A stretch of DNA of 64,000 bases from Candidatus Rifleibacteriota bacterium (GCA_012520995.1 JAAYNI010000010.1:7671-71670), one strand, 5' to 3'; positions 4,193 through 58,875 are shown, counted from the stretch's first letter. Program-made: numbers and translations. Notes: generated from the letters alone by a model not told the origin.

Positions 4193-4243
4193 TTGATTAT
4201 ACCGGTGAACCTCTAAAAGAATAAAGGAAAAGGAGAAACACAA

Positions 4244-4690: not shown

Positions 4691-4715
4691 AGCCACTTAA
4701 ATCTAAAAGTCCGTT

Positions 4716-4866
4716 TTCTATCCACAGATTACACAGATGAATGCTGTCGCACAGTGAGTAGGGCGTAGGGGAGGCTGTCCGAAAACTCGTTTTTAGCTAA
4801 GCTCCAAAATATGTAAAATTAGACTCCGCTTTTTTTAAAAAATCCAGTTTTTGGGCAGCCTCCCCT
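4716..4866. repeat. intergenic repeat cluster: DnaA-box-like motif (reverse-complemented), partial G-tract motif and a 10-bp long-range inverted repeat
   Basis: 4716-4731 reads ttctatccacagatta, the reverse complement of TAATCTGTGGATAGAA. 4759-4775 reads tagggcgtaggggagg. ggggaggctg at 4768-4777 pairs with cagcctcccc at 4857-4866. Confidence 0.35.
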
Positions 4867-16107: not shown

Positions 16108-16663
16108 ACCTCTTAAAAATAAAGCCTTTACCCTAACAGAGCTCTTGGTAACTGTAGCTATTACTGGAATTCTGATGACAACTCTTTATTCATTATTCTC
16201 TGCCATGACAAGAAACTATAGTAAGCAGGAATCCTCAAACAAAGCTCTTCAAGAGACTTCACTTTTCATGGCTCAATTAAGGCAAGACATAAACAACGCA
16301 ATTTTCTATGACTCTCTTTTGCCTCAAGAAACACAGTTCTCATCTGAAAACGGGGAGCTCAACTTCAAAATTTATGACAACCACACAGGCAACACAGAAG
16401 AGATATTTTACAAAGTCATACAAAGCGGCAACGAAATAAAGGTTATTCGCACTTTTCAACACAAAGAAAAAGCCTTTGAAACAGAGTCCTTTGAAAGCCT
16501 GCAAATGGATTTTAAATTTTCAGAAAAACAGACTGAAGGCGAAGAAACCCTCTATTCACCCTTAGCTCTCCATGTTCAGCTCAAGGCTGTACAAAAAAAA
16601 GGGAAGGACTTTATATTTAATACTTATTTAGTGCCTATAAGAGCTAACCGCCAACTACTTTAA
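16100..16663 (+). CDS. prepilin-type (type IV pilin/pseudopilin-like) protein
   Basis: The N-terminus reads LKNKA|FTLTELLVTVAITGILM (F+1, E+5, Ala at -1). It overlaps the upstream gene by 8 nt. Confidence 0.6.
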   Translation: MLKPLKNKAFTLTELLVTVAITGILMTTLYSLFSAMTRNYSKQESSNKALQETSLFMAQLRQDINNAIFYDSLLPQETQFSSENGELNFKIYDNHTGNTEEIFYKVIQSGNEIKVIRTFQHKEKAFETESFESLQMDFKFSEKQTEGEETLYSPLALHVQLKAVQKKGKDFIFNTYLVPIRANRQLL

Positions 16664-16765
16664 AAACAGTGGGCAGTGATCAGTGCACCGTGGGCAGAGA
16701 GAACAACGGACAGGACTATTTTGTTCTAAACAATTTCACTGTCCACTATCCACCATCCACTGCAC
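16664..16765. repeat. post-stop-codon intergenic repeat (family shared with 63809-63875)
   Basis: aaaaacagtgggcagtgatcagtgc...ttgttctaaacaatt begins immediately after the TAA of the pilin gene. The related sequence aaaaacagtggtcagtgg...ttgtttagaac follows the TAA at 63808. It contains the hairpin ggacag...ctgtcc. Confidence 0.3.
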
Positions 16766-16841
16766 ACTGAATTTATATTGGCATTTGTTGAAAATTTAAT
16801 TATAATTATTATGTAGAGATGTACAGAAAAAGGAAAGCCGC

Positions 16842-18467
16842 ATGAAAAAAACAATCAGCATAATGCTCTTTTTAGCTTTAATGCTCTTTAATACATATAA
16901 TTATTATCTTTGGGCAGACGAAATCCCTCCCTCATATAAAGAAGGAGAAACTCAAGAAACAACTCCTCCTGCTCAACAAGAGGGAGAAAAAGATGAAAAC
17001 CAAGAAGGGGAGACACAGCCGCCAGAAGATATAACACCTCCCCCCACTCCCGTCACCCCGCCTAAACCTCCAAAACCGCCTCTGACACCCGAACAAGAGA
17101 TTTTTGAAGAATATGGAGTTATCTTCAAATCTGAATCAAAGATTCTCTCTTGGGATACTTCTAAAGTTCAAGCTATAAAAGAAGTTCTTGAATCTGTGCC
17201 CAAAAGCTTTTCATCTTCCACGAAAGTCTTCTATCTTCTCTCCACTTACGAACAATTCGAAATCAAATACAATGGCTTTAATCGCGAATTTGGAGTGGTT
17301 CAATTTGGAGCAGGGGCTCTTGAAGCCTCAAGACCTTACAATATAAAGTTTAAAAATGTCTATGGCTCAGAACCATCCACCACGGACTTGATAAACAGAT
17401 TTAAGGCCATGGCCGCAAGAGGCATGACCTATGCTTATCTCCAAGAAAACCCAGAAATCCCCAGAAAATACAGAGGAGTTCTGAAAAACAGAAACTTCTC
17501 TGAAGTTACCAAGCTTTATGGGCCAGCACAAGAAACCTATATGGTTGTAGCTCCCGGCAAAGACGATATGTGGATAGACTTGGCCTTCGCTGTTGAGATG
17601 TATTTAACAAATCAGGGCGAGCTTAGCTCAATTTGCCCGGAAAGAGCCAAATTTGTAAAAGAAGAAATTTTCGGAGGGGAAACAGTCAAGACTTGGCCAT
17701 ATAAACCTTTACATAAAAAAATAGACCAACCCTCTGTCAATCCCGATCCAAATCCCGATCCAAATCCCGATCCTAATCCCGATCCTAATCCCGATCCAAA
17801 TCCCGATCCTAATCCCAATCCTAATCCCGATCCTAATCCCGATCCTAATCCCGATCCTAATCCCAATCCTAATCCCGATCCTAATCCTAATCCCGATCCT
17901 AATCCCAATCCCAATCCTAATCCCTCTCAAGGCAGCAGATATGTTTTGGAACCATTAAACACAAACAATCCTGGTCCTCCCGTAGAAGAGGAACAAGATG
18001 GGCAACCCTATATTCCTGAAATAGCTGTAATTCAGCAAGGAGGAGCGCTAGACTTGCCTGGAGGCATGAATGAAGCAATAATCGATCTCTGTAAACAGCT
18101 GAATGTTTCTTTCAGCGGCTCAACCGCTGCAATCGGCTATTTAACAACCATTGACACAAAAGATGCCTTTTCACGTGAAAGCTACATATTTGTAACCCAG
18201 AATTCTTGGCATCCATTCTTAGACTCTGAGCGCACAAAAAGATTCCAAGAGATTCTCTTGAGAGAAATGGCTTTCAGATATGCTTATCACAAGGCAGATG
18301 TACTTATAAAGTGGAAACGAGACTTTTCTATGGCCAACGACTATGATGCAATTAACAGTTTTGCAGAAACGGTAATAATGTACATGAACGCTCCTGGACA
18401 TCTGCAAACAATAAACGAAGATCGTTATAAGTTCCTGACAAATGAAGTTAAGCTGAAAAGACCCTGA
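16842..18467 (+). CDS. secreted protein with a Pro-rich N-terminal region and a central (NPDP)n repeat linker
   Basis: Signal peptide MKKTISIMLFLALMLF. Residues 300-360 are almost pure DPNPDPNP... repeats. The flanking domains are unrecognised. Confidence 0.65.
   Translation: MKKTISIMLFLALMLFNTYNYYLWADEIPPSYKEGETQETTPPAQQEGEKDENQEGETQPPEDITPPPTPVTPPKPPKPPLTPEQEIFEEYGVIFKSESKILSWDTSKVQAIKEVLESVPKSFSSSTKVFYLLSTYEQFEIKYNGFNREFGVVQFGAGALEASRPYNIKFKNVYGSEPSTTDLINRFKAMAARGMTYAYLQENPEIPRKYRGVLKNRNFSEVTKLYGPAQETYMVVAPGKDDMWIDLAFAVEMYLTNQGELSSICPERAKFVKEEIFGGETVKTWPYKPLHKKIDQPSVNPDPNPDPNPDPNPDPNPDPNPDPNPNPNPDPNPDPNPDPNPNPNPDPNPNPDPNPNPNPNPSQGSRYVLEPLNTNNPGPPVEEEQDGQPYIPEIAVIQQGGALDLPGGMNEAIIDLCKQLNVSFSGSTAAIGYLTTIDTKDAFSRESYIFVTQNSWHPFLDSERTKRFQEILLREMAFRYAYHKADVLIKWKRDFSMANDYDAINSFAETVIMYMNAPGHLQTINEDRYKFLTNEVKLKRP
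17738..17923 (+). repeat. perfect or near-perfect hexanucleotide tandem repeat (aatccc / gatccw / aatcct), about 31 units, in frame within the 16842 CDS
   Basis: Read directly from the sequence. The units encode the N-P and D-P dipeptides. Confidence 0.9.
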
Positions 18468-33921: not shown

Positions 33922-35442
33922 TTATAAATTAATGGGTTTATATTGTTCAAAAAGTTTTTTGTCGAAGGCTCTCATGTAGGCTTCAACAGGAGCTATTCTC
34001 CTTTGCTTGACCAAGTCCATCAAAGACTGATCCATCGTTTGCATTCCTTGTTGCTTGCTGGTTTGCATAATTGAGTTCAGCTGATATGTTTTATTGTCTC
34101 TGATACAGTTTGCAACCGCAGGAATGTTTATAAGTATTTCCAAAGCTGCGACTCGGGAAGATCCGTCAAGAGCAGGAATCAACTGCTGAGCTAAAATAGC
34201 ATTTAGCGAATCAGCTAGTTGAGTTCTTATTTGGCTCTGCTGACTTCCCGGGAAAACGTCTACTATTCTTTCAATTGACTGAGGCGCAGAAGGGGTGTGC
34301 AAAGTAGCAAAAACTAGGTGTCCAGTCTCAGCTGCCGTTACAGTCAAAGCTATAGTTTCAAAGTCACGCATTTCGCCCACCAATATTACGTCAGGGTCTT
34401 CGCGCAAGGAAGCTCTTAGAGCATTGCTAAAGTTTTTGGTAGTGCTTCCTACTTCACGCTGACTAACCAAACATTTATTATGAGAATGCACAAACTCAAT
34501 CGGATGCTCAATAGTTATTATATGCTCCTGACGTTCTTTATTAATCAGATCAATCATAGCTGCAAGAGTAGTGGATTTGCCTGAACCTGTCGGACCTGTT
34601 ACAAGCATAAGTCCCTTTTTCCTTCGGGTCAAATCTGCCAGCACAGGAGGCATGCCAAGTTCCTGCAGACTCTTTATTATGTTAGGAATAACTCTGAAAA
34701 CTGCGCCTAAGCCCAACCGCGTGTAAAAAACATTACAGCGAAAGCGTGCCAAGCCATGAATTTCATAAGCCATATCGAGCTCAAGAGTATCTTCCAGTTC
34801 TTCTTTCTGTTCGTTTGTCAAAAAGTTAAAAAGCATTCCTTTAACGTCTGAATCATTCATCACAGGCAAGTCTGTTGCCCAAAGCTTGCCTTGCAAACGA
34901 AGCATAGGAGGAGCGCCAACCGCTATGTGCAAGTCGGAACCGGCTTCAGCGACTACCATCTGCAAAAGATCGTCAATAGTTACTACGGCTTCGCCTCCGC
35001 TGGCACCGTCTTTCTCTGCACCGTAGGTAACGTTGCTTTTACCATCTAAAACCTTGCGAGTGCTAAGAGCAGAGGAGCCTCCCGCACGTCTTGCAGGAGC
35101 CTGTATGGTCGGATAGCCCTGAGCCGTTGCAGGTCTTGCAGGAGCCTGTATGGTCGGATAGCCCTGAGCCGTTGCAGGTCTTGCGGGTTGCAATGGTCTT
35201 CCCGCTTGAGCCGGCATAGGTCTATTAGGAGCAGCAGCAGCCGGTCTTGCGCCTTGAGAAGGAACAGAAGTTGCCGGCGCAGGTCTTCTAGGCGTTATAC
35301 TCTGCGGAGCCAAATTAGCAAGGTCATCAAAATTTGGCGTTGCCTGTATGGCTGGTCTCTGCTGCGAGTTCGCCTGTACATCCGTTTGGGGATCTTTTCT
35401 TTCTTCCTTCGAACCGAAGAATTTTCCTATAATATTATCCAT
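33922..35442 (-). CDS. pilT: type IV pilus retraction ATPase PilT with a roughly 180-aa Pro/Ala-rich N-terminal extension
   Basis: Walker A GPTGSGKSTT, LHTPSAPQSIERIVD, and the PilT-specific ...NCIRDNKTYQLNSIMQTSKQQGMQTMDQSL. The N-terminal 180 aa are low complexity. Confidence 0.8.
   Translation of the reverse strand: MDNIIGKFFGSKEERKDPQTDVQANSQQRPAIQATPNFDDLANLAPQSITPRRPAPATSVPSQGARPAAAAPNRPMPAQAGRPLQPARPATAQGYPTIQAPARPATAQGYPTIQAPARRAGGSSALSTRKVLDGKSNVTYGAEKDGASGGEAVVTIDDLLQMVVAEAGSDLHIAVGAPPMLRLQGKLWATDLPVMNDSDVKGMLFNFLTNEQKEELEDTLELDMAYEIHGLARFRCNVFYTRLGLGAVFRVIPNIIKSLQELGMPPVLADLTRRKKGLMLVTGPTGSGKSTTLAAMIDLINKERQEHIITIEHPIEFVHSHNKCLVSQREVGSTTKNFSNALRASLREDPDVILVGEMRDFETIALTVTAAETGHLVFATLHTPSAPQSIERIVDVFPGSQQSQIRTQLADSLNAILAQQLIPALDGSSRVAALEILINIPAVANCIRDNKTYQLNSIMQTSKQQGMQTMDQSLMDLVKQRRIAPVEAYMRAFDKKLFEQYKPINL
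35089..35178. repeat. exact 45-bp tandem duplication (2 units) inside the pilT N-terminal extension
   Basis: The unit tcttgcaggagcctgtatggtcggatagccctgagccgttgcagg occurs twice with 100% identity and encodes PATAQGYPTIQAPAR twice. Confidence 0.9.
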
Positions 35443-37659: not shown

Positions 37660-38385
37660 ATGTTATCTTCAGCTACTAAAATGAAAAGCAATAATCAAAA
37701 TATAGGCGGCATAGCCGTCGAAATTATAAAAAAGAAAAAACTGAAAAATCTCTATATCAGAATTGTCCCACCTGACGGCAAAGTAAGAGTAACTGCTCCT
37801 ATAAAGTTTCCAGACAAAGAAATAAAACTATTAATTTTAAGAAAACTGCAACGCATAAACGCTGCCAGAGAATGTATAATAGCCCAATCACGACAAACTG
37901 AACGAGAATATACTTCTGGAGAAATCCATTATCTATGGGGCAACCCCTATGTATTAGAAGTCATAAATGGACAAAGAACATACCAATTAGAATTAGAAAA
38001 AGAACTCTGCAGAATCATATTCAAAGTGCCTGCAAATGCTACTAAAGAATCCAAAGAGAAAGCCTTCAACAACTGGTACAGACAAAAGCTTAAAAGAGCT
38101 ATAGACTCCTTGGCAAAGCAAATTGAGGAAAAAATGGGCATATCAGCAAACGAGTATCATGTGAAAAACATGAAAACCAGATGGGGAACCTGCAACATCA
38201 CCAAACGAAGAATCTGGATTAACCTGCAACTTGCTAAAAAGCCTATAGAATGCCTTGAATATATAATCACTCACGAACTGGCTCACTTGCTGGAGAAGAA
38301 TCACAATAAAGGATTTTATACCATTGTCGAAAAGTTTTGTCCGACATGGAAAGAAGCCGAAAAAAAGCTGAAACAACTTAACTAG
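37660..38385 (+). CDS. YgjP/DUF45-family (M48-like, SprT-like) metal-dependent hydrolase
   Basis: C-terminal WGTC...ITHELAHLLEKNH (HExxH) pattern typical of DUF45. Confidence 0.7.
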   Translation: MLSSATKMKSNNQNIGGIAVEIIKKKKLKNLYIRIVPPDGKVRVTAPIKFPDKEIKLLILRKLQRINAARECIIAQSRQTEREYTSGEIHYLWGNPYVLEVINGQRTYQLELEKELCRIIFKVPANATKESKEKAFNNWYRQKLKRAIDSLAKQIEEKMGISANEYHVKNMKTRWGTCNITKRRIWINLQLAKKPIECLEYIITHELAHLLEKNHNKGFYTIVEKFCPTWKEAEKKLKQLN

Positions 38386-38686
38386 TGCTTTGTTTTGTCT
38401 AAAACTTCTCTATTCAATGACAAGCAGTCAACATGGACTATTCATGGTTATTTGATGCAACAATCGCACTAGAGGGAGTAGGAGATAGAAAGGGCAAAAC
38501 CCAAGACACAGGCAGAAACTGCAGAAAAGACTAAAAGATTTATTTCTAATTTATACTTTATAATTTCTAATTTAATTAAACTCGCCGCCCGCCACGCACC
38601 ACTCAGCACAGTGCGATCTTATAAGCGGATATTGTCCTGTGAATTTTGAAAGGCTGACAGGAAAGTTTTAGATATTACAAAGCACT
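38385..38686. mobile_element. MITE-like non-autonomous element (copy A) with 23-bp imperfect terminal inverted repeats flanked by TA
   Basis: The left end is TA-gtgctttgttttgtctaaaactt; the right end is aagttttagatattacaaagcac-TA (20 of 23 match). It exactly fills the interval between the stop codons of two convergent genes. The interior carries modules shared with 40856-40925, 57467-57655 and 61427-61775. Confidence 0.5.
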
Positions 38687-39173
38687 AAAAGTAGTTCAAG
38701 TCTTCGCGTTTTACTTTGGAAAAAATATAAGTCGAAGACTGATCGGTAATCAGCAAGAAAATGCCTGCAAGAAATTTGTATTCCACAATATAGGAATCTC
38801 CTTTATCGGGAAAAAAACGCAAAGCGTTTTCAGAGAGCAACTCATAATAACCTGATTCTGGCAAAGCCTTGTAATCAACTTTCTTGTTCTTAAAAAAGGT
38901 CAAGGAATAACTTCTATCTTCTTTAAGGGATAAAACAGGATAATTTCCTTCCTCGTTTGGGCTTATTACATAGACATAAGTTCCAGAATCGATATTGTCT
39001 TCTTTTTCCAGTAAATGCCATTCACCCAGAAGATTAAGAAAGAGGGCTCTGTCAACTTCTTCAGCTCCATCAGCTGCAAAAGGCAAGAAGGAAGTAAAAA
39101 CAAGCAAAACAGAAATAAAAAGAGAAAATATTTTTATCCGCACAAAATCCTCCAAGCACCTTTTTAAGCACAA
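38685..39173 (-). CDS. secreted hypothetical protein
   Basis: 162 aa with a signal peptide (FSLFISVLLVFTSFLPFAADGAEE). Confidence 0.5.
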   Translation of the reverse strand: MCLKRCLEDFVRIKIFSLFISVLLVFTSFLPFAADGAEEVDRALFLNLLGEWHLLEKEDNIDSGTYVYVISPNEEGNYPVLSLKEDRSYSLTFFKNKKVDYKALPESGYYELLSENALRFFPDKGDSYIVEYKFLAGIFLLITDQSSTYIFSKVKREDLNYF

Positions 39174-40855: not shown

Positions 40856-40925
40856 ATTAGTGGCGGGTGGGAGTGGCGAGTTTAACTAAATTAGAAATTA
40901 TAAAGTATAAATTAGAAATGAATGT
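40856..40925. repeat. partial copy (copy C) of the MITE-like family: the internal module only
   Basis: tagtggcgggtgggagtggcgagtttaactaaattagaaattataaagtataaattagaaatgaat is nearly identical to the reverse complement of 38541-38607. Confidence 0.6.
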
Positions 40926-41243: not shown

Positions 41244-41498
41244 TTATAAATTCTCTGGTTTCTGTATTTTTTTCAAAAATTCCGACTGCAGAGATTTCAG
41301 CTTTTCTTCAGAAAGCGGCTTGCTAGCCTCAAGGTTTGAACGCTGAATTTCTTCATAGACTTCTTTTCTATGAATTTTCACGCTTTTTGGCGCTTCAATT
41401 CCTATTCTGACAGTGTCTTTGCCTATATCCACAATGACAATTTCTATGTCATCATCTATAACAATTTTCTCGTTTGTTTTTCTGGTTAGAACAAGCAT
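41244..41498 (-). CDS. csrA: carbon storage regulator CsrA with a roughly 25-aa C-terminal extension
   Basis: MLVLTRK..E.IVI.DDIEI.IV..G...[14 protein letters not shown]. Confidence 0.85.
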
Positions 41499-41998
41499 TA
41501 TTTAGCCGCCTCTTGTTTTTTCGCAGCCAAAGACTCGCTGTATTCCACAATTCTCTTATTTCTCTTCTCAATCTCGGCAAGAATAGAAGTTCGGACATCG
41601 TGCTCCGGATCATTGGAAATAATTTGGGCGGCTTTTTTGTTCTTTTTATTGATGACCAAAGGACCTTGCAAATTAGCCGTCATTTTTTCAGCATCTTCGG
41701 GAATAGAGACCGTTACATAAATCAAAGCATCAGCCGGATCCGCCAATTCCAAAGGATTACGATCTTCAGACGATATTTCGATATTGTATTCAAACATGAA
41801 CTGCAAAGGCTCAATCACAATAAAAGCTAAATTTTCGTTATCCAGCGAGTGAAGCCACCTGAAAGGTGTTTTATCGTCCAGTTTTAGCAGAGCATAACGT
41901 TTATAGTCTTCAAAGCCTAAGAGACCTTTTCCAAAGTTGATTATTTCGCTTTCATTAATATCTAATTCGCCAAATCTTGAGCTCTTAAATTTCATCAC
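41498..41998 (-). CDS. fliW: flagellar assembly factor FliW with a C-terminal extension
   Basis: The F..GLLGFE....Y.LL......PF.WL.S.D.....F.VI.P pattern. The stop overlaps the csrA start. Confidence 0.8.
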
Positions 41999-42018: not shown

Positions 42019-45000
42019 TTATCCTAAAAAATTCATGAGCGACATCTGCATAAGCCTTGCTCCAACCTGCAAAGAAGCTTGATAAGATGCGGTCATCTCA
42101 TTCATTTTCATTATTTCTTCAATTATGTCAGCCTGACTTACTTTATTGAGCATCTTATTAACATTCAGATTGAGATTAGTCATTTTTTCTTCTGAATATT
42201 TTGCTCTGTTCGTCTTTACGCCCACTTCCGAATGCACATTCAAAAGTCTTCGTAAATCGCTTTCAAGACCAGGCAATGTGATATCCGAAACAGCTTTGAC
42301 ATCGCCCCTTAAAAGGCTGTCGCGTAAATCTATCAAAGTAGTAAACAAAGAGCGGCCAGGAGAAAAACCTAAAGCTCCTGCAGCTCCTTTAGAATCAGCC
42401 GGCTCCAATACTTTTATATAGTCTTTGCCAGCCCAGTTAGAAATATTGAGGCTTTTCTTGTCAGCAGAAATCCATGCCTGAGCCTGCATGTCAGGAACAT
42501 TATTGGAAATTGTATTGATAACGTCTCCGACAGTTTTGCATTCGGAAAGGTCTATTTCACCTGAGAATGTGCCGCTTTGAATGTAGATTTTGCCGCCCGG
42601 AAAACCTTCGCGCAAATCTTCTAAGCGGGTTCTTTCTGTAAGAGCGGGGTCCAAATCTTCACCCACAATCTTATGATCCACCGTTCTGCCTATAATGCCC
42701 AAATCATGACCGCAAGTGCTGTCAACGTCTACAACTTCCAAATGGCCAGTTGCGCCTCGGTTCAGGTCTTCTATTTCTATGCCGTTTTTATCGCTGTTAA
42801 TCTTGGCTCTGATATAAAGTCCATTTGAAGGATCGTTTATCTTATCCAGAACATCCTGAATACTCTCTGAACCGCGCAAATCTATAGCTTTGAAACGGCC
42901 GGCTTTGTCAGTGATCCTTATAAAACCCAGATTTACCCCGCTGGAATTGAAAGTTCTGTCGCTGTTGAGATCGCGCAAAAGAGTTTTTTCAGTGAGTATA
43001 GGATCCAAATCCTTGGCTCCTTCAAGAGTAGGCAGACTTGAAATCTTTACGGGAGTTGAAACTATCTTGACCTGATCATATACGGAAGCATTCTTGATAA
43101 AGCCCAAATCGCCAGCTGTATTTGAACTTTCTCTTGCTGCCAAAAAGCTCTTCGCATCGCCGTCTCGCGCTCTAATAAAAATTCTTTTTTCGCTGTCATC
43201 CCAAGAAGCTGTGTAAAAACCGCCGCTGTTGTTTATTCTGTCTATAACATCTTGAATAGTCGATGCGCCTTCGAGAGAAATTCGTTTTTCTTCACCATAT
43301 TCAGCATTTAAAACTACAGCGCCCTTAGCAGAAGGAGGGGGAATCAAATCTGCAAGCGGTGTATTCGCATTCAATGGAGAAGAAGCGGCAATAGGATCGC
43401 CTATCAAAGATGTGCCTTTGGTTTCTTTCAAGAGCCCTAAAGATTTGGCGGCTATTGTATCTTCTGAAACTTGAATTTGAGCTGTTCCGTCAAATTCTTC
43501 TATCGTGAAGTCGGAAGCGCCCAAGGTTGTATCAGTGATTCTTATTCTGTTTGAACCTGTATCATAAGAAGCCGTTTGAGCTCCGCCTGTTTGTGTATTT
43601 ACAGCCGCTATAATATCATCCGGAGTCTTGGCTTCAGAAATATCTACGTTTCTGGAAACGCCATCATGCCCAGTTATAGTTATAAATCCGCGTCTGAAAC
43701 CCTTGCCATCATTTATATTTTCCAAAGGGCTTTCGACAGAGTCCATAGCTATATCAGTCTTGGAGTAGAGCACACTTCCTGGACCAGCGTTATCAACAAG
43801 ACCCAAGTCAGCAGCAGTGCTTGGCGGCAATGCCTTTATATAAAACTGCGTTTTTTCCGAAGTTACCGAAAACTCGCCTTTGCCTTCTGTGAGGTTTTTT
43901 AATTCTATTCTTTTGTGAACCATGTCATAAGAAGCTCTTACAACCGAGCCGCCTGCATGGGCATTGATTTTGTCTATCACATCTTTGACAGTCACAGAAC
44001 CGGTTAAATCTATTCTGTGAATTTTTCCGTCTCTTGAAGCTATATTGAGATAACCGTCAGGAACCCCTAAACCTGCGTTCAAATCTGTAAGAGGCGTAAA
44101 CTCTGAACGCATTGCAGGGTCAGAAAGACCATAAATTTTGGAAGCATTGCCGGCATTTCTGTAAAGACCCAAAGCTGCAGCCGTATCTGATGGAACCTGT
44201 TCCAAACCTGCTTCAAAAGCCCCGGTTTCATTGATTTTATCCAACATCATCTGAATGTTGAAAACCTGAGTCAAATCAACCCTGTACTCTACGCCTGCCC
44301 GGTCTGATATTTTTATATATCCGCCCTGAACACCTCGTCCGCCATTCAAAACAGTAAGGGGCATAGCTTTTTCAAGAGGGGGCATTTGAGAAGAAAATGC
44401 GGGAGCTTCATTCGGAAGTCCGCCAAAAAACATTTCCAGAGCCGTAAAGCTTTTGCTTAGAGTAGCCCCTCTGTCAACTTCGCTCTTAAGACGAATCTCA
44501 TTGCCGTTATATCTGACACCGACTACGCTGTCTTCGTTGATCTTAGAGCGTTCCACACCATGCCCGTGAGTAACAATGGAAGTATTGAATTCGCCGTCTT
44601 TGCCCAAAACCAGTTCTATAGGCTTAATATTCGTATTGCTTCCGCTGAATATGTATTCTTCGCCTATTCTGGTGTTGGCTATGTTTGCAATTTCTTTCAT
44701 GAGCTCTTCGACTTCCTTAGCCATAGCATCTCTTTCGAGCTCTTCAAAAGTATCATTGGCTCCGCGAACAGCCAGCTCTTTAATGCGATGTATGATAGAC
44801 TCGGCGTTGGTCATAGCCCCGTCGCTTTTGGCATACCAGTCGAGAGAATGTTCTATATTCCTCAAGTATTGGTCATTTTCAAAAGCGTCGGTTCTCAGCT
44901 TCATAGCTATAGCGTTATCCGCAGGGTTTTCCGAAGGGGAAAGATATTTGCGGTTGGAAGCTATCTTTTCCTGGCTTGCCGCCAAGTTTGAAAAGTTGTT

Positions 45001-45051
45001 GTTGATTCGCCTTATGAAAGCATTATTGAACCAATGGCTCGTTACACGCAT
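42019..45051 (-). CDS. flgL: flagellar hook-associated protein 3 (FlgL) with six internal IN-motif repeat modules
   Basis: Flagellin-like N-terminus (ENPADNAIAMKLR...) and C-terminus (...SYQASLQVGARLMQMSLMNFLG). The central region has six repeats of about 95 aa, each ending ...DVIDKIN..GG. Confidence 0.8.
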   Translation of the reverse strand: MRVTSHWFNNAFIRRINNNFSNLAASQEKIASNRKYLSPSENPADNAIAMKLRTDAFENDQYLRNIEHSLDWYAKSDGAMTNAESIIHRIKELAVRGANDTFEELERDAMAKEVEELMKEIANIANTRIGEEYIFSGSNTNIKPIELVLGKDGEFNTSIVTHGHGVERSKINEDSVVGVRYNGNEIRLKSEVDRGATLSKSFTALEMFFGGLPNEAPAFSSQMPPLEKAMPLTVLNGGRGVQGGYIKISDRAGVEYRVDLTQVFNIQMMLDKINETGAFEAGLEQVPSDTAAALGLYRNAGNASKIYGLSDPAMRSEFTPLTDLNAGLGVPDGYLNIASRDGKIHRIDLTGSVTVKDVIDKINAHAGGSVVRASYDMVHKRIELKNLTEGKGEFSVTSEKTQFYIKALPPSTAADLGLVDNAGPGSVLYSKTDIAMDSVESPLENINDGKGFRRGFITITGHDGVSRNVDISEAKTPDDIIAAVNTQTGGAQTASYDTGSNRIRITDTTLGASDFTIEEFDGTAQIQVSEDTIAAKSLGLLKETKGTSLIGDPIAASSPLNANTPLADLIPPPSAKGAVVLNAEYGEEKRISLEGASTIQDVIDRINNSGGFYTASWDDSEKRIFIRARDGDAKSFLAARESSNTAGDLGFIKNASVYDQVKIVSTPVKISSLPTLEGAKDLDPILTEKTLLRDLNSDRTFNSSGVNLGFIRITDKAGRFKAIDLRGSESIQDVLDKINDPSNGLYIRAKINSDKNGIEIEDLNRGATGHLEVVDVDSTCGHDLGIIGRTVDHKIVGEDLDPALTERTRLEDLREGFPGGKIYIQSGTFSGEIDLSECKTVGDVINTISNNVPDMQAQAWISADKKSLNISNWAGKDYIKVLEPADSKGAAGALGFSPGRSLFTTLIDLRDSLLRGDVKAVSDITLPGLESDLRRLLNVHSEVGVKTNRAKYSEEKMTNLNLNVNKMLNKVSQADIIEEIMKMNEMTASYQASLQVGARLMQMSLMNFLG

Positions 45052-45072: not shown

Positions 45073-47076
45073 TTAGATCATTCCGTTAATCAGCTTGTCA
45101 AGCATCTCGTCTATTACGCTTATCGCCTTTGCCGAAGCGTTGTAAGCATGCTGATACTTTATAAGATTCGACAATTCTTCATCTAATGAGACTCCAGCTT
45201 GTGACTGGCGCTGTTTCTCCATATGGCTTATGACGTTCATGCCGTATTCAACCTCATTTTCAGCTCTCTTGCTGGCAGTAGCCAGCTGAGTTATAGCTTC
45301 GTTGTAAAATGAGTTCAATGTGGTTTTACCGTCATTAAAAAGAGCTTTGTGTTTAAGCTGAGCTATTTCTATAGCATTGTAGCCGTTGCCGTCACCATTG
45401 TAAGTTCTGAGTCTGTCGCCTTCATTCTCATAAGTGCCGCCTGAAGCAGCTATCACATTGAGATCCGCAAGAATTTGCGAATCTACAGCCATATTTTCAA
45501 TAGCATTTTTATAACCGGTTTCAGCAAAGTTGCCATTCATAGGCTGGAAGAAGTTTCTGCCTGTTTCTCCGTCAAGACCGTAACCCAATCTGTGTAAAGC
45601 GTTGGTCTCCGAAACTACCGCATAAGCCATCTCATTAAGCTTATTTATCAGGGTTTGAACTTCGCCGTCTCTGACACTCAAAAGAGCCCCCAGCTTTCCG
45701 CCTGTTACTGCCGGAGTAAGACCCAGGGTGGCAACGCCAGGCTTTTTGATTTCCAGATTCACTCCGGGAATAAGATCTTGAATACTGTTAGTCGGCAAAA
45801 CATATTCTTTGTTGCCCAAATTGAAAATAGCATCTCTGGGCTGTTTGCTGTCATGAAGATTTAAAACTGTGAAGAGATTGCTTGTGCCATCTTCGGTTTT
45901 AATGCTGTTTTTTGTTCCGCTGGCCGAAGCATTCAAAATCAACTGTCCCGATTCGTTGATATAAGCTTCCAAGCCTATATTGGCATCATTCAACATAGAA
46001 GCCAATTCCTTCATTCCTGTGTTTTCAGCATCCAGTTCGAAAGTTTTGCCGTTAACCGTGAAAGTGCCGCTTGTTATGCCGAAATCTGAAAGCGGTCCCG
46101 TCAGAGGGTGATATGTCAAAAACGAATACATGGAATGCTTTTCTGCTGTCTGAGTGACTGTCAAAGTCATGTTGTTGAGGTTTTTCAAACCTGTCGGAAC
46201 AGCAGAAGCCACATCAGGATCATTGGAAGCATCCGGCAAGCCTTTGGCAGAAGGCGAAACGAAACTTTTACCGCTGTCAGGATCGTAATGAGCATAAAAA
46301 TCATTGTGATACTCATGCTGAATCAAAGTGTGATCGCCTACGTTTACGGTCAGTTCGCCCTTTTTGTTGTAAAAAGATTTTATATTTACCAGCTCAGCAA
46401 GGTCTTCTAAAGCCATCTGTCTTTGATCTCGCAGTTCGTTAGCTGTAGAGCCGTTGATTTCGGAGCGGGCTATTTCTCTGTTAAGAACGGCAATCTCAGA
46501 AGCCAGCTTGTTAACTTGATTTACGTTTTCTCTGATTTGAGTTTCTATGCCGCCGTGATTGCTTTCGCATTTTACTCCTTGCAGATACTTAAGTTGAGAA
46601 TCTATTTCTTTGAAAACATCTATCAAGCTCTCTGTCTCAGCGATAAGACCTCGTCTTAATGCAGTATTGGAAGGGTCGTTTGCCAAATCTTGCCATGCCG
46701 CCCAATATTTGTCCAGCTGATTGGCTATATTAGAAAGACCAGGCTCATTTACTATGGCTTCCACCTGTTTAAGCAGAGTGTTTGTCAGATCATGGCCTGC
46801 AAGATCAGAAGTTTCATCAACAATCTTCGCATCCATATAAACATCGCGCAGCTGCTGAACAGTCGTAACCAAAACGCCGTTGCCTACAGTATGACCCATA
46901 GTAGCGTCATGTGAGCCGCTAAGCAGGTAAGATTTTGCGGAAGCCAGCACGGCTCTTTGCCTTGTGTAGCCTTCTGTGCCGGCGTTGACTATGTTTTGAG
47001 CCGTAACCTCCATAGCCGTTCTGTGAGCATACAAACCGCTCTTGGCTATGCTCAAGCCGGAAAAAGTGTTTCTCAT
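45073..47076 (-). CDS. flgK: flagellar hook-associated protein 1 (FlgK)
   Basis: N-terminus MRNTFSGLSIAKSGLYAHRTAMEVTAQNIVNAGTEGYTRQR and C-terminus ...IKYQHAYNASAKAISVIDEMLDKLINGM. Strong RBS AAGGAGG. Confidence 0.85.
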   Translation of the reverse strand: MRNTFSGLSIAKSGLYAHRTAMEVTAQNIVNAGTEGYTRQRAVLASAKSYLLSGSHDATMGHTVGNGVLVTTVQQLRDVYMDAKIVDETSDLAGHDLTNTLLKQVEAIVNEPGLSNIANQLDKYWAAWQDLANDPSNTALRRGLIAETESLIDVFKEIDSQLKYLQGVKCESNHGGIETQIRENVNQVNKLASEIAVLNREIARSEINGSTANELRDQRQMALEDLAELVNIKSFYNKKGELTVNVGDHTLIQHEYHNDFYAHYDPDSGKSFVSPSAKGLPDASNDPDVASAVPTGLKNLNNMTLTVTQTAEKHSMYSFLTYHPLTGPLSDFGITSGTFTVNGKTFELDAENTGMKELASMLNDANIGLEAYINESGQLILNASASGTKNSIKTEDGTSNLFTVLNLHDSKQPRDAIFNLGNKEYVLPTNSIQDLIPGVNLEIKKPGVATLGLTPAVTGGKLGALLSVRDGEVQTLINKLNEMAYAVVSETNALHRLGYGLDGETGRNFFQPMNGNFAETGYKNAIENMAVDSQILADLNVIAASGGTYENEGDRLRTYNGDGNGYNAIEIAQLKHKALFNDGKTTLNSFYNEAITQLATASKRAENEVEYGMNVISHMEKQRQSQAGVSLDEELSNLIKYQHAYNASAKAISVIDEMLDKLINGMI

Positions 47077-47243: not shown

Positions 47244-47316
47244 GCAAGATTAACTCAATTGGTAGAGTGTCACCCTTCCAAGGTGAAAGTTGCGGGTTCG
47301 AGTCCCGTATCTTGCT
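47244..47316 (+). tRNA. tRNA-Gly (anticodon TCC)
   Basis: Folded by hand. The acceptor stem is gcaagat/atcttgc; the D-stem is actc/gagt with the loop aattggta. The anticodon stem is tcacc/ggtga with loop cTTCCaa, and the T-arm is gcggg-ttcgagt-cccgt. The discriminator is U and no CCA is encoded. Confidence 0.85.
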
Positions 47317-47519
47317 CTTTTTTATTTTAGAAAAGCCAGAAAAAATTCCAAACCCCTCTTTGAAACCACAGAACACACGGAAAAATTCCAAAACCTTTCT
47401 ACCCACCATCCACTACCCACAACCCACTGCTTTTCAGCCGTACACTTCCTAATTTCATGTCAAACTGCTATAATTAAAGAAAGATCTCACCTTTTATAAG
47501 GATTACAAGGAGCAAACCC

Positions 47520-49259
47520 ATGAGAATGACACTTAAAAGACGAGGAGTGGCTCTATCTTTTATTCTTGGAGTGGTCAGCTTTATAAGCATTCTGCTTTTC
47601 GGAATGATATATCGGATGCGCGGAGAAACAGTCTTGTCGGGCAACTATGTAGATGCCACGGCAGCTTTGATATTGGCTGAAGCAGGAGCAGAAGAAGCGC
47701 TTTTCAACATGCGGACTCAGCTGAACAATCCCGATTATCCTCTATACAAGCTGGTAGCCAATGAAGACAGCGGATCTTTGATGGTAGACACAGAGAGACT
47801 GGCGAAAGGCGATACAAATGTAGCTCCGCTTCTGCAAAAGAGTGATATAAAAGTTCAAGTAGATTGGCAGCTGGACAAAGCCGCCACTCAAAATCTTATA
47901 TCTCAGGGAGTTCCCCCCGGAGTCGCCAGACAAGGCTATATAACTATAAACTCCATGGGAAAACACAACAACACCAAGAAGCAGATTGAAATGAAAAAGC
48001 TTTTGAAAGCGGTTCTCATGAAAACTTCTGAAGACAAAGAAACATTAGGTGTAGTGGCTCCCGCTCACAGCTTTTTTGCCGACATGGTCAAAAAGGACTC
48101 CTTTGAGATAGCGAAATTCGATATTCTTGACCCTTGGGGCTTTACGGTAAAAGGCGGCAAGGCTTACTTTAAAAACGGAGCTGTTGTAGACCTTCCAAAA
48201 TGGCTGATGCTCACTAAACTTTCCAATCAGCTTGAGCACCCTTGGATAGACATGGGAATAGGCTGGACAGGCTGGAACGGCGGCGCCGATTTCAGCGAAA
48301 CTCAGCTGGAATACACAGATTCGCCTGTAAAACGACACTACAACAAATGGCAGGGTCCATTCTCTTTCCCTTGGTGGCAGGGCAACAGCAGCGAAAAATA
48401 CCATGCCGAAACAACTCAAGTCGGCGAATATTCCGACAAAGACCTGAATATCTATCCGGCTTCTGTTTATAAGTCTTTGGCTACTAGAGTCATAGACCCT
48501 AAAGAGAATCCAAAACATGGCAAATATTTTACAAACGTAAAGTTTCAAGAAGCGTTTGGCAGAAACGAAGTAAATTACACCAACGTTTTGCCAATGTATG
48601 GCTGGGGCGACTGGAGAAACGTTCCAAACAAATTCTCCAGCATCTTCAGCAACCCTACAAAAGCCCACGACTTCAGCAGAGCTGTAGAAGTTAATGGCAT
48701 AACCTATGTTAAAGGCGATGTTTTTATAGAGGGATGGGTAAAAGGGCAAGGTCTCTTAGTGGTAGAAGGAAACGTATATGTTGGCGGCGACATACTCACC
48801 ACCCTAGATGAAAACGGTAATGAGTCGGCACTTGGCATAATAGCATTGCGCGACAAAACTCACGACACTTCATCTGACAACCCCAGAACCGGCCGAATAA
48901 TCTATGAACCCCATCACGACAGCGACTGGTCCAGATACGGAATTACTCACCCCTTCAGAAACTTAAGCCCGAGGCTTGAAGGAGCCTTCTACGCTGAAGG
49001 CGGCATGGAGCTGAAAACTGATTCATCCATGAAAAAACTCATAAACATGGACATAATAGGTAATCTGGCCGTCGGATATTTCAACAGAAAAAAAATGCCA
49101 AACGATGTAAGAGTTACTTACTTTGACTGGCAAAAAGTTCTAGAGAATTCAGGCAATGAGAACATGACAGTCAGCACTACTGTTTCATACTCAGATATAT
49201 ACAATGTGGCGATCCAAAAGCCTTTAATATCTTGGAGAGAAGTCACGGCTACACTCTAA
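47520..49259 (+). CDS. large PilX-N-like (type IV pilus minor pilin/tip-associated) protein, paralogous in architecture to 13539..15641
   Basis: The N-terminus KRRGVALSFILGVVSFISILLFGMIY...ATAALILAEAGAEEALFNM follows the PilX_N pattern. The C-terminal region is beta-rich (VKGDVFIEGWVKGQGLLVVEGNVYVGGDI). Confidence 0.5.
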   Translation: MRMTLKRRGVALSFILGVVSFISILLFGMIYRMRGETVLSGNYVDATAALILAEAGAEEALFNMRTQLNNPDYPLYKLVANEDSGSLMVDTERLAKGDTNVAPLLQKSDIKVQVDWQLDKAATQNLISQGVPPGVARQGYITINSMGKHNNTKKQIEMKKLLKAVLMKTSEDKETLGVVAPAHSFFADMVKKDSFEIAKFDILDPWGFTVKGGKAYFKNGAVVDLPKWLMLTKLSNQLEHPWIDMGIGWTGWNGGADFSETQLEYTDSPVKRHYNKWQGPFSFPWWQGNSSEKYHAETTQVGEYSDKDLNIYPASVYKSLATRVIDPKENPKHGKYFTNVKFQEAFGRNEVNYTNVLPMYGWGDWRNVPNKFSSIFSNPTKAHDFSRAVEVNGITYVKGDVFIEGWVKGQGLLVVEGNVYVGGDILTTLDENGNESALGIIALRDKTHDTSSDNPRTGRIIYEPHHDSDWSRYGITHPFRNLSPRLEGAFYAEGGMELKTDSSMKKLINMDIIGNLAVGYFNRKKMPNDVRVTYFDWQKVLENSGNENMTVSTTVSYSDIYNVAIQKPLISWREVTATL

Positions 49260-49264
49260 GAACA

Positions 49265-49289
49265 GGGAGTAGGGGTTAGGGCGTAGGGG
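49265..49289 (+). repeat. G-quadruplex-capable motif GGGAGTAGGGGTTAGGGCGTAGGGG (recurring intergenic motif)
   Basis: Four G3-4 tracts with 3-4-nt loops begin 6 nt after the stop codon. A close copy lies on the opposite strand at 57624-57653, and partial copies at 4759-4775 and 38472-38495. Confidence 0.5.
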
Positions 49290-49330
49290 ATAGCGAAGAC
49301 CCAATACCCAGGACAAAAAGCACAAAAAAA

Positions 49331-49362
49331 ATCGCAGGTTAACTGCGATTTTTTTTTCTTTT
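49331..49362 (+). terminator. rho-independent terminator
   Basis: Perfect hairpin atcgcag gttaa ctgcgat followed by T9. It is preceded by an A-run. Confidence 0.75.
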
Positions 49363-56036: not shown

Positions 56037-56439
56037 GGGTCCGGATCATATAAGTATTATCAAGATTTGTTTTTTCAGAGCTTCAGCTGTTTAGCAGGCA
56101 TAGCAATTATTATGTCAAGCAATTGACTGCTTTGAGATGCTGGCAAATAGTTGTATCCTTGGATTGAGAGATGTCATCGAATGAATATTCCGAATATTTT
56201 GAGGCAAAAACCGATAGTAAATGAATTCTTCAAAGAGAATTCATTTATGGACAAGCCGCAGGTTAAGAACAGAGATTTACAAGTTTACTTGTGAAATCTC
56301 TGTCTTAAGCTGAGACTGAGCAAAAGCAGACATGCTTTTGCGAGATTTTTGGTCTTTATCGGTCCTTTATCTGTGTTAATCTGTGTTAATCTGTGGATAG
56401 AAATATAAATATATAAAAATTCAAGGAAAGATAATAAAA

Positions 56440-57468
56440 ATGAAAGAGAGCAAACCTAAGATTTTGCTGGTAACTACTGGCGGAACGATATCAATGCAAA
56501 AATCCGAAGACGGAACTTTTTTGCCAAGCAACAGCAGCGATTCTCAGCAGCTGACAGCTTCTATACCTGAGCTTAATGAACTCGCCGCAATAGACATCTT
56601 GCAGCTGGCAAACATCGACTCGACCAATCTGCAACCGGAACTCTGGGCTAAAATAGCTCAAACAATCTACAAGAACTATAAAAACTATGAGGGCTTTGTT
56701 TTGGCTCACGGAACAGATACTCTCGCCTATACTGCTTCCGCTCTGTCTTTTATGATACAGGAACTGGGAAAACCTATAGCCATTACCGGTTCTCAGGTTC
56801 CACTCATGCAAATAGGCTCAGACGGCAGAAACAATCTGATTAATGCAGTCAGGGTCGCTATTTCAGATATAGCAGAAGTAGCAGTGGTTTTTGGCTCAAC
56901 TATCATAAAAGGCTCCCGAGCAAAAAAGGTTTCAGCATTTGATATGGAAGCTTTCTCTTCAGTCAATGACGCAGAAATGGGCAAAATAGGCCTATCGCTT
57001 AAATTTTCCAAAGGCACACAATACAGAAGCAAGAAAAAGCCTATTCTTAGGACTGAATTGGAAACCAACATTGCTATGCTCCCTGTTTATCCGGGAATCA
57101 AACCCGAGGTAATAGACTTTTTGGCAGAAACTCACAAGGGAATCGTCCTTGAAGGATACGGCGCAGGCAACATACCAACAGGCGAATTCGGTATTGACTT
57201 GGCTGTCAAAAGAGCTATTGACAAGGGCGTGCCCGTAGTAATTTGCACTCAATGCGTTATAGGCTCAACTGAAATGGAACTATATCAAGTCGGCAGATCC
57301 GCATTAGATGCAGGCGCTATACCGGCAATGGACATGACGCCTGAATCGGCTTTCGTCAAACTTATGTGGGTTATGGCTCAAACAAAGGATTTAAGCAGTA
57401 TTGCAGCCATGATGCAGAAAAACTTTGCAGGGGAAGTCCACGAACTGGGCGGCCTATATGACATCTAG
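56440..57468 (+). CDS. ansA: L-asparaginase, type I-like
   Basis: N-terminus KILLVTTGGTISMQ (the TGGTIA motif). It has a second conserved block (HGTDT) and length 342 aa. Confidence 0.85.
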   Translation: MKESKPKILLVTTGGTISMQKSEDGTFLPSNSSDSQQLTASIPELNELAAIDILQLANIDSTNLQPELWAKIAQTIYKNYKNYEGFVLAHGTDTLAYTASALSFMIQELGKPIAITGSQVPLMQIGSDGRNNLINAVRVAISDIAEVAVVFGSTIIKGSRAKKVSAFDMEAFSSVNDAEMGKIGLSLKFSKGTQYRSKKKPILRTELETNIAMLPVYPGIKPEVIDFLAETHKGIVLEGYGAGNIPTGEFGIDLAVKRAIDKGVPVVICTQCVIGSTEMELYQVGRSALDAGAIPAMDMTPESAFVKLMWVMAQTKDLSSIAAMMQKNFAGEVHELGGLYDI

Positions 57469-57655
57469 CGCTTTGTTTTGTCTAAAACTTTCCTGTAAGC
57501 CTTTCAAAATATCCGCTTATAAGATCGCGCCGTGATGAGTGGTGCGTGGCGAGTGCGAGCTTTAATAGTGTAAAATATAGGGTGTAAAGTGTAAAAATAA
57601 ATACTCGGTTTTTCTATCCTTTCCACACCCTACGCCCTAATCCCCACTCCCTGAT
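57467..57655. mobile_element. MITE-like family copy B, inverted relative to copy A, filling the gap between convergent stop codons
   Basis: It starts at the ansA TAG with TA-gcgctttgttttgtctaaaactttcctgtaagcctttcaaaat...ccgcttataagatcgc...gagtggtgcgtggcgag, which matches the reverse complement of 38580-38686. The 3' part contains the C-rich complement of the G4 motif (57624-57653). Confidence 0.5.
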
Positions 57656-57657
57656 GT

Positions 57658-58875
57658 TCACAGTGTGAGCGGCGCCTCGCTTAAAACCTGTGTCAATATC
57701 TTGCCTAGAACCTTTTTTTCAAAAGGACGGGACTCTTCACTCATGTTAAAACGTTCTCTCAAAGCCAATCTTCTAAGAGTTTCCGTAAAAGGGCTCTTGC
57801 CCGTACTCATTTTAGCGGTATATTTCGCCAAAAATTCCAAGGAATCCTCACAAGAAATAAATGGATCTGAACCCAGAGAAGCATTCAAAAAGTTGTCTGC
57901 AACTATAACGCTATGAAGCACAAAATCATTAGGCAAAGGCGGCAATGAATGATGTTCCGTTATAGACAACTCTATAAAATGAGGCAGATTTAAAGTATCT
58001 GAGAACATCTTTCCCGCTTCTATATGATTAAAAGCGAATATTTTATTCTCCGCTTCCAAGGAAGACAAACCAGCCGAATATCTGTTGTTTGAAGCAGTAT
58101 CATAATTTTTTGGAGCATAATCGGCCAAAAGCAAAGAACCTATATCATGAAGCAAACCGGCTGAAGCAGAAAGCCACCTCTGAGATTTATCTGAAACTGC
58201 CAGCATGGCAATAGTCTCACAAAGCAAAGAGCAATTTTTCATGTGCAGCAATTTTATAGAAGCTTCTTCAAATACATCTTCAAGCATTTTGAAGAGTTCA
58301 AAAACAAGCACGTAAGCAATGCCCTCGCCGCCTACAAAAGCCGCCGCTTTACTTAATGAATCATACGGCTCTTCTTTTGCTTCATTTGACTCATTTGCAA
58401 GCTCCAGAATTTTCATAGCAATTCTATGGTCGCCTGACAAAGCCGCCAAGGCATCTTTGATATTTGCCGGATCGTTTCTGAGAACTTTAAAAGCGGAAAA
58501 TATTTTTGATTGCATAAAAGGCAAACTTTTAAAATTATCTATGCCCGCCTTTACGCCTTTAAAAGTCGCAATACTTAAAAGAGCCTCATCTACGTCTTTG
58601 TAGAGAGGCAACTTGAATATTTTTTGCGGTATTTGCATTTGTCTTGTGAGCACTGCCTTCAGTTTTTTAAAACCAGGGTGCTCTACAAGCGCATCTTTCA
58701 CAGAAACTGGCAATATTCCGTTGGGCTGCAAAACCAAAACTACGAAATCATATTTATTCAAAGCGGTTTTAAGCAATGAAAAACTTTGGCTTGATGCGTG
58801 CATCATTTCATTTACACGCAGTTCCAAAATATTTCCGTCATGAAGCTTTATTTCAAAACCGCTATTGTTATGCAC
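57658..58875 (-). CDS. HDOD-domain signalling protein
   Basis: ...SASAGLLHDIGSLLL... HDOD signature in the C-terminal half. Confidence 0.55.
   Translation of the reverse strand: MHNNSGFEIKLHDGNILELRVNEMMHASSQSFSLLKTALNKYDFVVLVLQPNGILPVSVKDALVEHPGFKKLKAVLTRQMQIPQKIFKLPLYKDVDEALLSIATFKGVKAGIDNFKSLPFMQSKIFSAFKVLRNDPANIKDALAALSGDHRIAMKILELANESNEAKEEPYDSLSKAAAFVGGEGIAYVLVFELFKMLEDVFEEASIKLLHMKNCSLLCETIAMLAVSDKSQRWLSASAGLLHDIGSLLLADYAPKNYDTASNNRYSAGLSSLEAENKIFAFNHIEAGKMFSDTLNLPHFIELSITEHHSLPPLPNDFVLHSVIVADNFLNASLGSDPFISCEDSLEFLAKYTAKMSTGKSPFTETLRRLALRERFNMSEESRPFEKKVLGKILTQVLSEAPLTL

Follow-up and report, generated by a model that had tools for sequence, protein, structure and literature searches.

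Cyanobacterial genomes contain short tandemly repeated repetitive (STRR) heptanucleotide sequences, which are used in STRR fingerprinting. A G-rich class of heptamer array is known from Xanthomonas and Nostoc, where Rehm et al. (2015; PMC4692102) described units of GGGAATC and GGGGA(C/T)T, the 'GGGNATC type'. There are ~180 such arrays per genome, each comprising 2 to 26 heterogeneous units with four the commonest number, and they lie in intergenic DNA on the coding strand, no more than 50 bp from a stop codon (PMC4692102). Many occur as inverted pairs, G-quadruplexes (G4) are formed in vitro and most arrays are transcribed; no function was found, nor any association with mobile elements (PMC4692102). 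Direct repeats of the heptamer TAACTGA are found in Beggiatoaceae, Cyanobacteria and Bacteroidetes (MacGregor 2015; PMC4679880), and another heptamer class is described in a Nostoc preprint (10.1101/2022.06.06.494920), with a mechanism established for neither.

We have analysed a window of 64 000 nucleotides in which an initial annotation had noted a recurrent G4-capable motif in what it called an AT-rich genome. The host is a Riflebacteria/Ozemobacteraceae-like digester organism. The homologues of the 579-amino acid protein encoded upstream of the motif are labelled Candidatus Ozemobacteraceae or Riflebacteria, on contigs from biogas or anaerobic-digester metagenomes. At 41% GC the window is only moderately AT-rich, so that the direction of the earlier description is right and its degree overstated. 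The motif itself, the 25-mer GGGAGTAGGGGTTAGGGCGTAGGGG, is found exactly at 49265-49289 on the plus strand (copy A), and reads as the units GGGAGTA, GGGGTTA, GGGCGTA and GGGG(ATA). Its first G is the sixth nucleotide past the TAA codon (49257-49259) that ends the ORF at 47520-49259, and thus just five nucleotides, GAACA, separate the stop from the array. This is where the motif had been placed; the label 'PilX-like' given to the gene is a tentative one, the protein having a PilX-like hydrophobic N-terminus but no Pfam match. The close copy that had been reported on the minus strand at 57624-57653 is present at 57627-57651 (copy B, GGGAGTGGGGATTAGGGCGTAGGGT). It reads GGGAGTG, GGGATTA, GGGCGTA and GGGT, is identical to copy A at 22 of 25 positions with the same order of units, and lies 6 nt downstream of the TGA stop codon of an HDOD-domain gene (57658-58875, minus strand). 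There are therefore two full copies, on opposite strands, and at n = 2 no bias to either replication strand is to be seen.

Both copies fit the canonical G4 pattern as claimed, with four tracts of three or four guanines and loops of 3-4 nt. A regular expression for canonical G4 sequences (tracts of at least three G, loops of up to 7 nt) matches two sites in 64 kb, which are copies A and B only; the average shuffle has 0.125 and no shuffle has more than one. The annotation had proposed that a G4 predictor be run, and G4Hunter agrees, with scores of 2.04 for A and 1.76 for B; the remaining copies of the family all score below 1.5. For copy A as single-stranded DNA the calculated stability of the G4 is -8.4 kcal/mol (ViennaRNA), compared with -3.3 kcal/mol for the best hairpin, and on such predictions the formation of G4 in the non-template DNA or in 3′ UTR RNA is physically plausible. 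The three substitutions between A and B all fall outside the GGG cores, an outcome that is weakly compatible with selection on the tracts but has a probability of ~0.12 by chance alone. One explanation of the motif is a selected G4 on the non-template DNA strand (or G4/R-loop) just past the stop codon, which might pause or block RNA polymerase or the replisome, or nucleate recombination. The tract and loop lengths and G4Hunter scores of the two copies, the favouring of G4 over hairpin in single-stranded DNA and the intact GGG cores would all be consistent with this, as would the preference for four units and the in vitro G4 formation in the related class (Rehm et al., PMC4692102).

At the opposite extreme, the sites might be G-rich by chance and unrelated. 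Yet no A/B-like match with up to three mismatches arises in any of 100 shuffles of the window, the two canonical G4 sites are well above expectation, and the alignment of A with B has a score of 59.5 that is reached by none of 300 shuffles. The flanks are also shared, as AACA..AGGGAGT upstream and GATAG..AA.ACC downstream. Since A and B have in common both these flanks and the order of their non-identical units, they are copies by descent rather than independent expansions, and coincidence is a vanishingly improbable account of them.

The motif is a four-unit tandem run of the degenerate heptamer GGGNNTA, or equivalently TAGGGNN; the initial annotation had overlooked both this periodicity of seven and the earlier description of the class (PMC4692102). 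The heptad register of copy A runs GGGAGTA, GGGGTTA, GGGCGTA, GGGGATA, GCGAAGA, CCCAATA, CCCAGGA, and that of copy B runs GGGAGTG, GGGATTA, GGGCGTA, GGGTGTG, GAAAGGA, TAGAAAA; the heptad-array test gave a lag-7 identity of 0.61. The 3′ flank of copy A is GATAGCGAAGACCCAATACCC, and the units from ATA onwards make up a degenerate tail (49290-49313, plus strand) in which the 7-nt register is kept. The same register is found in three further places, which we term D, U and H. Array U (47397-47428, minus strand) lies between a tRNA (47244-47316) and the start of the ORF at 47520, and has three G-tracts in the units (AGT)GGGTTGT, GGGTAGT, GGATGGT and GGGTAGA. Array H (16665-16770, plus strand) is made of CAGTGNN heptads that follow the ORF at 16100-16663. 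Element D contains heptad arrays that are not G-rich, of ATTTCTA and ACTCGCC types (38535-38607, plus strand), and further non-G arrays of AGTGGCG and AAATTAG types occur at 40859-40919 (plus strand), in an inverted copy of 38534-38603. Tandem Repeats Finder places period-7 arrays at 16737, 38542, 40859, 40888, 47399, 49264 (as period 14), 57567 and 61747, and the units of the other intergenic arrays are of the types CACTATC, ATTTATA, AGTGGCG, AAATTAG, CTACCCA, AGTGTAA and AATGTAA.

This periodicity is a property of the intergenic DNA. Taking arrays of four units with a lag-7 identity of at least 70%, we find seven in 5.5 kb of intergenic DNA compared with 0.15 in shuffles, none of 60 of which reaches seven, and no array by the same test across 58 kb of coding DNA. 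When periods of 4 to 12 are compared, shuffles are otherwise exceeded only at periods 8 and 10, by one array each. The G4-capable motif is thus the G-rich form of a heptad pattern that is general in the intergenic DNA of this genome, to which the non-G period-7 arrays are confined as well. Two further ideas about the units were tried and set aside. The word TGGATAGAA is not enriched as a separate motif (23 observed, 19.5 expected), and its intergenic occurrences are three exact copies only. An apparent 5′-to-3′ gradient of unit decay, which might have indicated polar growth, was an excess on the 3′ side produced by the terminal GGG demanded by the search pattern; shifting by a unit removes the difference between the sides (2.47 versus 2.22, and 1.84 versus 1.85).

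The initial annotation held that dispersed repeats of the intergenic DNA carry the motif, and this is borne out by alignments and by modules shared within the window and with the loci L263 and L264. Copy A aligns significantly with element D (38474), with a copy C (4752) and with array H (16665), and it also aligns with copies on the metagenome contig L208 discussed below; the gaps are whole heptads. Relative to A, about two units are missing from D and one from C, while H, which aligns over ~65 nt, keeps just two GGG tracts. Element D is a full MITE-like element of 305 bp (38383-38687, plus strand), with 25-nt terminal inverted repeats (88%) and TA flanks, and L264:18815-19068, just outside the window, is a second full copy of this type. 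These two carriers have the terminal inverted repeats, target-site duplication, multiple copies and non-coding character that define a MITE; at copy A there are no terminal inverted repeats, and it does not qualify as one. At 57465-57602 (plus strand) a TA-flanked terminal inverted repeat lies over the TAG stop codon of an asparaginase gene, and is followed by CGATCTTATAAGCGGATATT and then by GTGGCGA-type and AGTGTAA-type heptads. This stretch is homologous to 38538-38692 on the minus strand and to L263:20100-20260; thus a module of ~150 nt common to B and D recurs in L263, there without the G-array. The long shared repeat (~75% identity over 158 nt) encloses only copies B and D, and the sequence that copy A has in common with the others amounts to about 45-65 nt, which qualifies the statement that all copies sit inside repeat-family DNA.

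Comparison of the two full elements is informative about the G-array. They are near-identical over 118 nt from the left end and diverge exactly inside the array, which is GGGAGTAGGAGATAGAAAGGG in D and GGGAGTAGGGCGTAGAGGGTAG, with three tracts, in L264 (18951-18981). The G-array thus marks a junction between modules, which could be a point of recombination or nested insertion, or else just the fastest-evolving part of the element. A junction of this kind is also what a recombinogenic G4 might leave. The motif is not a constant part of the MITE consensus, however, there being one or two tracts in one full copy, three in the other and none in the L263 module. Like D and the L264 element, the TA-targeting MITEs derived from IS630/Tc1-mariner have terminal inverted repeats of ~25 nt, TA flanks, a length of ~250-300 bp and no coding sequence. 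The differences are that the G-array here is internal and variable, that copy A has no terminal inverted repeats and that no partner transposase was identified; a scan of 30 window proteins revealed neither a transposase nor a RAYT (Y1 transposase) gene.

The MITE-like family as a whole, TA-flanked and with the terminal inverted repeat GTGCTTTGTTTTGTCTAAAACTT, is represented at 38383-38687, 57465, 55920, 61422 and L264:18815-19068. At four of the MITE-like sites the CTAG with which the element ends either provides the TAG stop of the adjoining gene or overlaps it. Several metagenome contigs end within these repeats, which suggests that they break assemblies.

The number of G-tracts is not conserved. 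Partial copies had been reported at 4759-4775 and 38472-38495, and both sites exist but neither is G4-capable. The first, copy C (4759-4775, plus strand; GAGTAGGGCGTAGGGGA), has two tracts only, and the second, the reduced G-array of D (38474-38494, plus strand), has one or two in the units GGGAGTA, GGAGATA and GAAAGGG, with a G4Hunter score of 1.04. Across the family copies in 79 kb of the source genome, a small sample partly selected by a four-tract pattern, the counts are 4, 4, 3, 3, 2, 2 and 1-2, and once the array is absent; an excess of four-unit arrays such as Rehm et al. found (PMC4692102) might go unseen in such a sample. Nor is the position conserved. Three relatives (L127, L128 and L129) have orthologues of the gene upstream of copy A, with 59-64% amino acid identity, and the motif is absent from the orthologous site in all three; there is no canonical G4 in the 62 kb of these relatives' loci. 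In L128 and L129 the orthologue runs directly into an intrinsic terminator, and in L127 the following intergenic region holds other repeats. The latter (L127:11760-12000) include ATTCCCGC...GCGGGAAT palindromes, which we take to resemble dRS3-like elements, and two AT-rich period-7 arrays but no G-rich heptads. We also considered the element as the source of the C-terminus and stop codon of the gene at copy A; the terminal V(D/E)A(T/V/S)L* is common to the orthologues, so this C-terminus is native.

The description 'conserved G4' is thus not supported, given tract counts of one to four, a related element with no array and orthologous sites with no motif. The initial annotation had itself set against its proposal the picture of a motif always embedded in one repeat consensus with no conservation of the G-tracts, and this is nearly what we find: the tracts vary, although the carriers are two related dispersed elements rather than a single consensus. 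All of this weighs on the selected DNA G4. Four tracts occur in two of seven arrays, and the strand differs between the two full copies. Moreover, arrays of ATTTATA, AGTGTAA, AGTGGCG and CAGTGNN units are just as confined to intergenic DNA and cannot form a G4, and the tracts of B and C are predicted to be sequestered in strong hairpins. Selection for a G4 at the DNA level is thus an unlikely explanation. The known example closest in setting is the Neisseria pilE G4, which resembles copy A in being a G4-capable sequence beside a gene that had been called pilus-related. That G4 lies upstream of pilE, needs the promoter of an adjacent sRNA and is a unique conserved site; the motif here is downstream of its gene, repeated and unconserved in orthologues, and Pfam gives neither a pilin nor a PilX match for the gene.

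Related organisms and populations provide two further views of the family. L208 is a contig of 40% GC from the same digester project and comes from a relative. A stretch of 7.4 kb has three family copies, each of them downstream of an ORF stop codon and on the coding strand of that ORF, at 5, 40 and about 90 nt with 3, 4 and 4 tracts, respectively. Within the population, each of the loci A, B, D and U has one and the same sequence in every contig recovered (5-8 metagenome samples per locus), in a strain look-up that demands an identical neighbouring protein and is thereby biased to one clone. As there is no length polymorphism over these 5-8 samples, slippage is not fast, and the arrays are not visibly hypervariable and have no instability of the kind seen in phase variation. 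The A/B consensus gave no match in viral contigs.

Do the arrays act as RNA? A bidirectional intrinsic terminator (49324-49356, both strands), with a stem of 14 bp and A- and T-run flanks, lies 35 nt past array A and places that array within the presumed 3′ UTR. In the RNA of copy A the two downstream C-heptads can pair with G-heptads (-13.8 kcal/mol), but the fold is a weak one (z = -2.25). Stronger structures are predicted elsewhere. At copy B a hairpin forms on the sense strand (57567-57648, minus strand), in which the G-heptads are the 5′ arm opposite TTTACAC heptads, with many G-U pairs; it is asymmetric, with -29 kcal/mol (z = -4.8) in the sense and -17 kcal/mol (z = -2.3) in the opposite strand. 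The pairing partners of array H are the CACTGNN heptads of 16737-16770 (-38.9 kcal/mol, z = -4.8), and with the last G-tract of copy C begins the 5′ arm of a long, terminator-like hairpin (~4766-4866; -46.8 kcal/mol, z = -5.0) that is followed by a T-run.

These folds at B, H and C raise the possibility that what is selected is a REP-like RNA structure in the 3′ UTR, as stem-loop arms or an RNA G4, which would act as a terminator or as a barrier to 3′-to-5′ exonucleases that stabilizes the upstream message. It would fit that the convergent genes at B have no separate canonical terminator between them, that the window encodes a gene of the RNase II/R family, and that most of the repeats studied by Rehm et al. 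(PMC4692102) are transcribed. Copy A, in contrast, folds poorly and has a canonical terminator of its own, two of the three L208 copies are unstructured (z = +0.37 and -0.03), and we found no RNA structure common to all copies. Rfam 15 contains no family for the motif, and tRNA alone reaches the gathering score in the window; below threshold the matches near A all fall on the terminator hairpin, and at B there is nothing relevant. A selected 3′ UTR structure is therefore a minor, though real, possibility. The arrays do share with REP and BIME sequences their location between genes past the stop codon, their hairpins in the 3′ UTR and, at copy C, a GTAG word adjoining the palindrome (GTAGGGGAGGCTG...CAGCCTCCCC), which is a feature of the REP/RAYT association. 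They differ in that no RAYT gene is seen among the 30 window proteins, that there is no palindrome at A or at the L208 copies, and that it is the 7-nt periodicity that defines them.

How closely are the arrays tied to stop codons? To the gaps of 5 nt at A and 6 nt at B can be added 2-5 nt at H and 5 nt at the second L208 copy. Nearly all of the related arrays examined, U and the L264 copy being exceptions, have their guanines on the strand that codes for the ORF ending immediately before them. We scanned sequence collections with two loose patterns, GGGNNTNGGGNKTAGGGNKTAGGG on genome contigs and GGGNNTNGGGNNTAGGGCGTAGGG on metagenomes, giving at least 120 loci each. The matches listed are mostly unrelated heptad arrays, from cyanobacteria and Planctomycetes together with telomere-like TTTAGGG/GGGTGTA satellites; none among them is a locus of the source genome, and L208 is the sole relative among them. 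TAGGG-type heptad arrays are thus widespread across phyla. In 120 GTDB loci listed, we scored ORFs of at least 100 codons with a stop codon between -30 and +10 nt relative to where the array starts. Among the matches listed, 43 of 105 TAGGG-type arrays (41%) lie at an ORF stop on the G strand, compared with 11 of 105 when the C strand is scored and with 5.2% of random positions, and in 25 of those 43 listed cases the stop codon is the array's own TAG. Every TAGGGNN unit carries TAG, so that three units provide a stop in all three frames of the G strand; the C strand of such arrays has no stop codons. Such an asymmetry is probably part of the reason for the orientation rule, but it does not fully account for the tight spacing to the stop codon, and the sharp preference for the first few nucleotides past the stop is not explained by neutral tolerance alone.

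Two of the other loci may be described here. The metagenome contig L141 (41% GC) has heptad arrays of at least 12 units at 1749-1845, 4167-4280 and 4560-4640. One begins at the stop of a uvrB-like ORF, and two are within a trmD-like ORF that is open when read on the C-rich strand. The nearest foreign match among the matches listed is L080:1275-1330, from Candidatus Buchananbacteria (GGGAGTAGGGGTTAGGGAGTAGGG, one mismatch), and its array runs straight into a TTGACA...TAAAAT promoter-like pair; in other lineages the arrays may thus lie upstream of promoters too.

The constancy of GGG and TA within the units is also what might be expected of a repeated recognition word, and the arrays might be heptad-spaced binding sites for a putative protein, either an RNA-binding regulator (CsrA, Csp or S1) or a DNA-binding protein. 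Binders of this sort have been proposed for the TAACTGA heptamers (MacGregor 2015, PMC4679880). Copies A and B both start with ACAGGGAGU, which resembles a GGA-type CsrA site, and an apparent csrA-fliW pair is present in the window. The heptads have many unrelated sequences, however, and so there is no single recognition word; in addition, GGA is present in just two of the four units of A, the number of units is highly variable and no candidate binder is linked to the arrays. A protein-binding function is accordingly very unlikely.

The csrA assignment concerns an ORF for 84 amino acids (41244-41498, minus strand) directly after fliW (41498-41998, PF02623) and a flagellin of 1010 amino acids (42019-45051). 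By our reading of its sequence the product looks like CsrA, which would give a FliW-CsrA-flagellin module. Words of the form GCCGATA(C/T), resembling -10 boxes of sigma-28 promoters, are found at ~47150 (minus strand), 49427 (plus strand) and 61390 (plus strand), one of them upstream of flgK (45073-47076, minus strand). The window contains several repeats of other kinds. The ORF at 16842-18467, which has no Pfam match, includes a 12-nt coding repeat, AATCCCGATCCT, present 15.5 times at 17739-17924 and encoding (NPDP)n. The same ORF has a proline-rich C-run at 17027-17068 with a G4Hunter score of -2.2, the guanines thus being on the template strand. A perfect period-10 repeat (ATCTGTGTTA, 2.7 copies) at 56369-56395, upstream of the asparaginase gene, is followed by GGATAGAA, and there are related words (TAATCTGTGGATAGAA) at 41135 and, on the minus strand, at 4712. 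Lastly, a 45-nt tandem duplication (98% identical, 2.2 copies) is found at 35084-35184 within the ORF at 33922-35442 (minus strand).

How, then, do the arrays compare with the heptamers already described? The class of Rehm et al. is the closest. As there, these are tandem heptamers with a tract of three or four guanines, and heterogeneous units conserved at the guanines and one or two further positions. Copies A and B are beyond the minimum of two tandem units and 14 bp that defines an array of this class. Both G4-capable copies, and all seven period-7 arrays, are intergenic, and A, B, H and the second L208 copy are close to a stop codon. Four units is the commonest number there and the number in the full copies here, and hairpins between inverted arrays and variation in unit number are common to both. 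The unit is GGGNNTA, with a TAGGG core, instead of GGGAATC or GGGGA(C/T)T, so this is a sequence variant of the class and not the same repeat. It differs further in its host, a Riflebacteria-like member of a candidate phylum with 41% GC, and in that dispersed, partly MITE-like repeats carry the array as one of their modules, with an order of units common to two copies. As far as sequence can tell, the anatomy would match the class at each testable point save that of the unit. The TAACTGA repeats are likewise intergenic direct repeats of a heptamer that contains stop codons; they come in sets of 2-6 and are scattered patchily over phyla, but lie mostly just upstream of start codons and have a single defined unit that is not G-rich. 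The STRR sequences are like the present arrays in being short and intergenic, with several heptamers per genome and different arrays side by side, and differ in unit sequence and phylum.

We consider the motif to be a variable micro-array of heptanucleotides, a module of dispersed and partly MITE-like intergenic repeats in which the capacity to form a G4 is incidental, and hold this to be the probable explanation with reasonable rather than strong confidence. Arrays would grow and shrink through duplication or slippage of units, and would be spread by copying of the repeat around them. The site just past a stop codon, with the G strand as sense, may be where they are tolerated or favoured. The potential for G4 would then be an unconserved by-product of having at least four GGG-bearing units, and any effect would most likely be structural, conjecturally on 3′-end formation or mRNA stability, by way of a hairpin with complementary heptads or of an RNA G4. 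There is a slim chance that something less passive than slippage is at work. The arrays at the junctions of diverging, near-identical modules might reflect a dedicated process that adds or recombines 7-nt units at the 3′ ends of genes, or a conserved function of the 3′-end RNA with G4 and hairpin as alternative states.

Our analysis shows that the G4-capable array is one state of a variable heptad module, beside arrays without G-tracts that are equally confined to intergenic DNA. The existence of the latter argues that the real puzzle is not the quadruplex, but the 7-nt periodicity and the placement at stop codons. It is also a caution for surveys of G4 sequences in bacteria, in which many 'conserved, recurrent' matches may be copies of a repeat family. 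With these arrays the class of G-rich heptamers adjoining stop codons is extended to a candidate phylum, and to a new unit sequence.
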